The notes under the pieces are model-generated. The model ran no database searches. It saw only the letters and a list, made by a program, of their open reading frames with translations, and was not told the origin of the DNA. Positions 24,435 to 26,804 of a stretch of DNA of 64,000 nucleotides are shown one piece after another. The stretch is from the NCBI GenBank assembly GCA_050613775.1, contig JBODTK010000102.1, positions 62,001-126,000 on the forward strand, read 5' to 3'. Position 1 is the first letter of the stretch, and each line of letters begins with the position of its first letter. The DNA comes from Neocallimastix sp. 'constans' (lineage: Eukaryota). The translations under genes and the position numbers were made by a program.

Positions 24435-26804
24435 GTAATTGACAAATTATTTTATTTTATTTTATTTTTTTTTTTTTTATTCAAGTTATAATTTGACTGA
24501 GTATAACATATATATATTATTTTCATCGAATTATAATATTATTAAATCATATTAATCCTTCATAAATTTATTTTAGAATATTCTGACAATATATTTTAAT
24601 TCTGTTATTATGAAAATGACAAAATTAATTATAAAGATTATAATTAATTATATTATTTCTTTGCTCGAAGTTATATAATTTTATTAATAAATATAAAAAT
24701 AAAAATGATGTTGAATATTAAAAATAAGAAAGTGTTAGTTCAATTTGTTTATAAATTGAATGTATTTATATATATTAATTGTATAAATTATAACTTAACT
24801 TTTAGTTGAGCTCAGTTGTAGGCTGAGACTCTTAATCTTTTAGAAATAAAAATAACTTTATTATATTAAAAACATTAGAATCATGTTCAAAATAATAATG
24901 TACATTTTTATGTTATTTATAGTTAACATAATACGTGAATTTTTACTATTATTGGTCAAATAATTTACATGAATATATTAAAATATATATTATTTCTCCT
25001 TAAATTAATATAATAATAAAATTTTATATTTATATTTTTAACAATATTAAATTATAAATTATTTTAAATAATTTTTAATTTTAATTATAAAAAATTATTA
25101 TAAAAAATTGAAATAAAATAAAATATAATAAAATATAATAAAATAAAATAATATAATATAATATAATATAATATGATATGATATGATATATTAAAGCCTA
25201 TAATATACTTAATTTATAAAAAAATTATTTTATTATAAATTTAATATAAAAATTTATTTATATTTAATTTATATTTGATTTACTTTTAATTATTTTATAT
25301 TAAATATTTATTTTATTTTCCGAATTTTGAATTTTATTAAATAGTAATTATAATTTTTTTACAATAAAATTTAATTTTAGGTTTATAATTTATGATATAA
25401 AACGTAAATAAAAACTTTAATTATTAATAAATTATTTTATTAATAATTACATAAAAGTAAATTAATAAATCATTTGCAAATTCGTGACATAAATAAAACG
25501 TGATCGAAAATAACGTGATAAAATTAAAATTATGTAACGACATAAAATTATGAAAGAACATAAAAATTAATGTAAACATAAAATTTATAACATAAATTTT
25601 ATGTTATGTTAAAATTGAAATAATTTATAAATTTCTTTTTATTATTTTTATTATTTTTATATTGATATTTTATTTTATTATATTTTTAATTATTTTTAAT
25701 AATTATTATTTTATATTAATATTTTATATTTTATTAATTATAATAAATTTATATTTTTCTTATTATTTTATGAATATTTTATTTTAATATTTTATATTTT
25801 ATTTTATACTTTTATATTAAATACTTTAATACTTAATAGTTATTCTAAAAGAATTAATTAATTAAATAGTTTATTATGAATTTCAAATATAAAAACAAAA
25901 ATAATTCTTTATAATTATTCCTTGCAGCACAGTTTTATGCCAAAATTATAATTATTTTATATTTTCGAGATAATAAATAAATACATGTATTAATTAATTT
26001 TATAATTATTTTTAAATAAATAAATAAATTTTATAATTAAATAAATACTTAAATAAAATTTCTCCCAACAAGAGAACTTGAATCAAAGGCATCTTTATTA
26101 TTTAATTATTATAAAAAATGATTTAAAAAGATATTAAAAATTTAATTTCATATAAATTTAAATTCAGTATACAATAATTATTAATAAATAAATATACTAT
26201 TTTTATATACTAACCCTTTTAAAATATTAATATGATAATATCAGATATATATAAGAAGAATATTGATTTTCATTAATAGTTGTAATGTAATTAGAAAATT
26301 ATTAATTAAAATTATTTATTAAAATTTTTTATATGATATTTAGAGGAAATTTAATATCTTACGTTCGTATGAACTAAATATTTTTTTTATAATGAAAAAA
26401 TAAATTATAACTATAAAATAAATTCCATTAAAAAAATTACAATAATATTTATTTAAATAATTTATATAATTGTATTATTTAAGTTATTTAGAAATATTTT
26501 AATTTCAATTAATTTAGTTTAATACTGAATTCTTTATGAAGGCTTAAAATTTCGTAAAAAAATTAAATATATATTTATTTTTATAAATTAAATTAAATAA
26601 AAATTGATTTTATTTATCAATTTATATGAATTATTACATATTAAAATATTTCTTATTAATAATTTATTTTTATTCAGTGATTTGTTGTAAATAATTTATT
26701 ATTAAAAAATTTTATTATTATTATATTATATAAATAAATGAAAATTTTTTAATTTTTTTATGAGTATTAAATAATTTAATATTTCTTATTTATCTATTAA
26801 TTTT

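Follow-up and report, generated by a model that had tools for sequence, protein, structure and literature searches.

The 64-kb stretch of DNA analysed here (the window) is very AT-rich (GC 12-35%) and crowded with nested, decayed Copia elements, none of which is an intact copy. It raises the question of which RNA primes minus-strand synthesis in these elements, whose 5' LTRs are followed by a 14-base motif, GATTAAGAGTCTCA. Judging from sequence comparison, we consider it very probable that this motif is the minus-strand PBS of three Copia families and that it would bind a 5' fragment (nt 1-40) of the host tRNA-Lys(CUU).

The motif directly follows the 5' LTRs of three families

A scan of the window recovers four exact copies of GATTAAGAGTCTCA, at 12805-12818(-), 24824-24837(-), 26995-27008(+) and 30088-30101(+), three copies with one mismatch, at 43512-43525(-), 52465-52478(+) and 60859-60872(-), and two with two mismatches, at 6853-6866(+) and 39504-39517(+). 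At up to one mismatch, the motif occurs seven times against a chance mean of 0.01, a count reached in 0 of 100 shuffles; at up to three mismatches, its 14 occurrences barely exceed the chance mean of 7.0, so that only the close copies were taken as real. All seven delimited 5' LTRs are joined directly by the motif, without an intervening base. It follows none of six 3' or solo LTRs, and the 14 bases found there instead differ from it at 8-11 positions. The first-pass annotation had placed the motif against an LTR at the four exact sites, which holds for every coordinate and junction, and had listed decayed copies at 6854, 39504, 43511, 52465 and 60859. All five of these were recovered with one or two mismatches, but two of them need qualification: at 6853 a clipped PBS is present, the LTR end and the first PBS bases being lost, and at 43512 the PBS follows an LTR-like end that has no BLAST match to the other LTRs. 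That at least three LTR families share the motif is likewise borne out, as identities amount to 71-98% within and 55-63% between three families.

Element E2 runs on the minus strand from 25043 to 19977 and carries an exact 5-bp target duplication, AATAT, on both flanks. Its 5' LTR (24838-25043, minus strand, family B, TG...AA ends) is 96% identical to the 3' LTR (19977-20179, minus strand), which is preceded by a polypurine tract. The exact PBS, complementary to nt 27-40 of tRNA-Lys(CTT), is continued on the same strand by an extension at 24809-24823 that is predicted to pair with the tRNA D-arm (about nt 9-26) or to form a hairpin with the PBS. A short RT remnant (23976-24137, minus strand) is the sole clade-like coding trace found within E2, and a 38-base tandem repeat of about six copies (24192-24472) lies just before it. 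Element E1 spans 13009 to 7508 on the minus strand and has LTRs of 191 bp. Its 5' LTR (12819-13009, family A, TG...AA ends) is followed by the exact PBS, then by a frame encoding gag, protease, integrase and the start of RT in Copia domain order (8980-11985), a second frame with the end of RT and RNase H (7744-8643), pol being broken between the two, a polypurine tract (7699-7707) and a 3' LTR that is 98% identical to the first (7508-7698).

The remaining copies are more fragmentary. On the plus strand, E3 consists of a family A 5' LTR (26805-26994) with its exact PBS, the two together spanning 26805-27008, and a frameshifted gag further downstream (27843-29825), while the 5' LTR and exact PBS of E4 (29879-30101; family B, AG...CA ends) have a partner LTR at 34064-34270. 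Family B LTRs with a diverged PBS lie at 39300-39517 and 52268-52478 (both plus strand), and a third, lacking its 3' end, precedes the clipped PBS (6686-6866, plus strand). E5, on the minus strand, has a family C 5' LTR with a PBS carrying one mismatch (60859-61068), pol remnants at 54303-57899 and a 3' LTR starting at 54030. The site at 43512-43525 (minus strand) borders a putative LTR, and a solo family B LTR (41226-41431, minus strand), which has no PBS, served as negative control. Host genes situated between the elements encode a cysteine-rich repeat protein without Pfam match (2287-3792), a GDSL lipase (18401-19027), a putative rhamnosyl transferase (37495-38691), an acyltransferase 3 (45061-46374) and a GT2 glycosyltransferase (47860-48666).

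Copia assignment and unusual LTR ends

The coding remnants show the Copia order of domains, Retrotran_gag_2, Pol_BBD, rve and RVT_2, with the RNase H part assigned by homology. Direct LTR pairs with 98, 96, 84 and 76% identity and a polypurine tract are present, and the target duplication is exact in one of the four paired elements (E2). A PDB profile search gave 0 matches, the ESM Atlas returned generic RVT_2 clusters only, and in the RNA run X17 we found one low-depth LTR contig, which is not evidence of transcription.

Most window LTRs have TG...AA ends. E4 has AG...CA, and an outside relative, L124, has TG...CA. The U5 ends AA rather than CA in all three families and in both LTRs of a pair (3' ends at 12819, 7508, 24838, 19977, 26994, 39503, 52464, 60873, 54030 and 41226, and in L144:1-6). 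Independently of the motif, the position of the LTR end follows from the target duplication of E2, from contig breakpoints at 12819 and from L124. At 12819 and 13009, the two ends of the E1 5' LTR, contigs from public runs either break off or become divergent, which confirms its limits, and the AA end is retained in a public-run contig of depth 1151. Since non-canonical LTR ends are known in Copia (10.1101/137141), TG...AA does not exclude membership; the end types given there for plants are TGGA, TATA, TACA, TGCT, TACT, TGTA and TCCA, and we found no mention of TGAA among them in the available text. By eye, the polypurine tract appears to be preceded by an inverted repeat (34020-34063 and upstream of other 3' LTRs), whose sequence resembles the complement of the bases just after the PBS and could permit end-to-end pairing.

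The motif is complementary to the anticodon arm of tRNA-Lys(CTT)

According to the first-pass annotation, the complement of the motif is the anticodon arm of tRNA-Lys(CTT), ending at about position 40. This agrees with three eukaryote-type, non-host tRNA-Lys(CTT) genes (L004, L121 and L122), in which the complement occupies nt 27-40 and the first base of the motif pairs with nt 40. In Hemivirus-type elements, synthesis starts from the 3'-OH of nt 40 (PMC1181622), so that the register is the known one: in the window as well, the PBS adjoins the 5' LTR and, by comparison with these non-host genes, is complementary to the anticodon arm as far as nt 40.

In order to compare possible pairing partners, duplex energies were predicted with the non-host tRNA L122. 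The PBS together with 31 downstream bases gives -22 to -42 kcal/mol with the 5' half, compared with -8 to -17 kcal/mol for the same regions with the 3' half. Priming from a tRNA 3' end fits poorly; a better match of the motif to the 3' end of another tRNA was among the observations that the earlier annotation had named as counting against it. For E2, whose extension lies at 24809-24823, the predicted duplex with the non-host tRNA half reaches -41.6 kcal/mol, equalled by 0 of 500 shuffled extensions, and the hairpin -9.4 kcal/mol. Against 500 shuffles, the D-arm extension has p<=0.01 at four of nine window sites and p of 0.06-0.68 at the other five, and p of 0.008 and 0.036 in the relatives L124 and L144, statistics that derive from mutually related sites and from the surrogate L122 in place of the host's tRNA. 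The evidence that the bases downstream of the PBS also pair with the D-arm is suggestive only, and the same bases can be folded back onto the PBS as a local hairpin.

This hairpin leads to the possibility that the site is self-priming or a hairpin site, comparable to Tf1 or to the conserved hairpin site of GalEa, and that its likeness to a tRNA is coincidental. Some local hairpin can indeed be predicted at every window site (-2.2 to -9.4 kcal/mol), and fungal GalEa elements are reported to carry a hairpin where other elements have their PBS (PMC5445492). However, a consensus fold of 11 PBS regions aligned with MAFFT, in which loop lengths vary, contains no pairs, and conservation is confined to the 14 bases that match the tRNA, the flanks being variable. 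Within its own LTR, the longest stretch complementary to the PBS comprises 5-8 bases, mostly A/T, and an 18-nt PBS is predicted to pair with its own LTR at -4.5 to -9.4 kcal/mol, so self-priming, another objection foreseen by the annotation, also fits poorly, and we regard this explanation as very improbable. The site might alternatively bind intact tRNA-Lys via an unfolded anticodon arm in a packaging or structural role, with cleavage after annealing or with another RNA acting as primer. At several sites the predicted pairing spans about nt 9-40, which would be enough to capture a whole tRNA; yet in all seven delimited 5' LTRs and in L124 it stops at nt 40 by the LTR boundary, the geometry of a primer 3' end, and cleavage after annealing would still count as half-tRNA priming. 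We consider this improbable.

A last explanation, to which we give almost no credence, takes the motif for one half of a tRNA-Lys gene that a site-specific insertion has split, or for a fragment of tRNA origin that the element carries, and it draws on the resemblance of 24809-24837, read on the plus strand, to a degenerate tRNA 5' half. Against it, the motif lies inside the element, between the 5' LTR and gag, the outer flanks of E2 are the AT-rich target duplication, 14-mers of tRNA nt 41-73 are absent from the window at up to two mismatches, and neither ARAGORN nor Rfam found a tRNA gene in the window. With no tRNA 3' half anywhere in the window and the motif internal to the element, the split gene is largely refuted. 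Pairing of the motif with a 5' fragment of tRNA-Lys(CUU) is the reading that we follow below.

A candidate tRNA in runs that hold the element

Two public runs from one sample, X1 and X4, hold 0.70 and 0.68 of the element's words. Each yields one 75-base contig on the L121 tRNA, at a depth of 7378 and 5989, respectively, that covers nt 1-63 without gaps; seven of these 63 positions differ from the surrogate L121, possibly inside nt 27-40. Such deep, gap-free contigs indicate that an intron-less, high-depth tRNA-Lys-like gene is present in the runs holding the element, and the contig is probably the host's gene and presumably identical to the surrogate over nt 27-40. Run X14 has 163 contigs on the L121 tRNA, and X3, one of four runs, has none, which is not evidence of absence. 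In X14, the bases upstream of the tRNA-Lys contigs (L121:6013 and 6075) resemble what we take to be another tRNA's 3' end with a short T-rich spacer after it; given the high depth as well, the tRNA genes may be arranged in a tandem array. A metagenome scan for an AT-flanked host tRNA returned three loci, all of them tRNA-Lys(CTT) with 30% GC, which do not appear to be the host's; as the scan pattern was selected for the motif, they speak to the register and not to prevalence. In viral contigs, one of 120 loci among the matches listed in a motif scan is a tRNA-Lys.

Two relatives in other assemblies carry the same site

In order to place the elements, a tree was built from the RT-RNase H region of E1 and 135 of 139 selected proteins retained by length. 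E1 falls within a 59-member clade with support of 1.0 and a long stem. Clade proteins that were checked are rich in AT-coded residues, and the sole named members are Orpsp1_1 proteins, a label that we take to denote a genome of Orpinomyces, an anaerobic gut fungus; cluster look-ups of 10 clade proteins yielded no further names. The runs holding the element comprise feces and sheep-gut metagenomes as well as two organisms. The elements are members of a distinct, AT-rich Copia clade whose hosts are probably anaerobic gut fungi.

In prokaryote genome bins we found 36 contigs with Copia-like RT (L124-L159), most of them short and apparently eukaryotic DNA assigned to the wrong bin. Five AT-rich contigs among them share 42-70% identity with the query, and the LTR-internal junction is visible in two of these five, both of which carry the exact motif. 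In L124 it directly follows a canonical TG...CA LTR, this junction being placed downstream of RT, as would result from a collapsed or tandem assembly, and in L144 (59% RT identity) it directly follows an LTR-like AA end; no junction is visible in the other three. A 10-base core of the motif is absent from the remaining 31 contigs. Seven of the 36, scattered over the tree, carry another shared motif, presumably the half-iMet site of copia and Ty5. Non-TGG sites after a CA end were also seen in the Copia contigs L128 (end of a terminal repeat) and L135 (after an LTR), the former resembling, as we assume, a half-tRNA-Tyr site. Neither the E1 tree nor a second one of 88 sequences, for which 28 of the 36 loci were long enough, resolved a sister group, and a protein-level search of viral contigs found no relatives.

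Discussion

The position of the motif, its register and its conservation in two outside relatives all support the half-tRNA-Lys priming that had been proposed for these elements, priming itself being the inferred part. As envisaged, the host tRNA-Lys(CUU) would be cut in the anticodon stem after C40, and the resulting 40-nt 5' fragment would anneal to the 14-base site via nt 27-40. Its new 3'-OH at C40 would pair with the first base after U5, from where RT could continue directly into the LTR in the manner of copia and Ty5, while bulged further pairing to the D-arm may stabilise the primer complex. We infer the cut, the nuclease and the priming by analogy with copia and Ty5; the primer end of Ty5 has been attributed to RNase P cleavage (PMC5371799).

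The novelty implied by the first-pass annotation does not hold. Donnart et al. (2017; PMC5445492) had already described, for the fungal Copia clade FunCo1, a PBS core, ATTAAGAGTCT, as the complement of an internal stretch of tRNA-Lys. This core equals bases 2-12 of the window motif, so that the FunCo1-type PBS is present in the window elements, and in a full-text literature search for ATTAAGAGTCT the only retrotransposon paper by title was PMC5445492. FunCo1 is reported to be almost confined to Pezizomycotina (PMC5445492). The host of the window elements, in contrast, appears to lie outside this group, given the Orpsp1_1 proteins as named clade members, the GC content of 12-35% and the feces and sheep-gut runs, and none of the best 120 matches in three protein searches is a named ascomycete protein. 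The elements share the PBS of FunCo1; host and match lists count mildly against membership. In the available text of PMC5445492 we found no register, cleavage model or extended pairing for FunCo1.

Other half-tRNA primers that are not Met weaken the novelty further (PMC6317226, PMC4139406, PMC10886601). In Hemivirus-type elements (Drosophila copia, yeast Ty5, Osser and 1731) the PBS adjoins the 5' LTR, complements the anticodon arm and is used for a start at nt 40 (PMC1181622, PMC10275265), and relatives of Ty5 likewise use a half-iMet (10.1101/2025.04.25.647736). Their primer is initiator tRNA-Met, with experimental support for copia and Ty5, whereas the window elements would use Lys(CUU). 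It is likely, on the sequence evidence, that the window elements work like Hemivirus-type elements with the PBS of FunCo1. As in the window elements, an elongator tRNA is matched internally in the gamma (Tca2) and related LTR families of Candida albicans, with both short and extensive internal matches, but there it is tRNA-Arg(UCU) and not Lys (PMC4139406). Rust-fungus Copia elements and Helenus TRIMs have anticodon-loop PBSs for Tyr, Ile, Asp/Asn and iMet and have switched primers repeatedly (PMC10886601), and the plant elements Bianca, Bryco and Gymco-II use half-Met and half-Ile (PMC6317226); no Lys half was found for these fungal and plant elements in the available text of the two papers. 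The primer tRNAs of the rust-fungus type carry introns (PMC10886601), whereas the candidate tRNA-Lys here aligns gap-free. For gut-fungal elements we found no description of the window PBS in the literature available to us, although Navaratna et al. (2024), on LTR elements of anaerobic fungi, may cover it, and the available text of PMC4427930 names no primer tRNA.

What is new here is that a distinct, AT-rich clade, probably from gut fungi, has this site, together with the possible D-arm pairing and the TG...AA LTR ends. It is conceivable, if doubtful, that these belong to an ancient, gut-fungus-specific Copia clade that gained half-tRNA-Lys(CUU) priming independently of FunCo1, with a two-part site that would bind most of the 40-nt fragment as far as the D-arm, and with transposition by way of the non-canonical TG...AA ends. 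The finding opens no new mechanism. Half-tRNA-Lys priming, to which the available text devotes a single line on ascomycete FunCo1, is extended to a fungal lineage that probably diverged early, and its register is set at nt 40. As one more case, the finding bears on the frequency with which Copia elements change their primer tRNA and on the identity of the nuclease, from host or element, that produces the fragment. Annotation based on a TGG-type PBS and TG...CA ends would overlook such elements in gut-fungal genomes.
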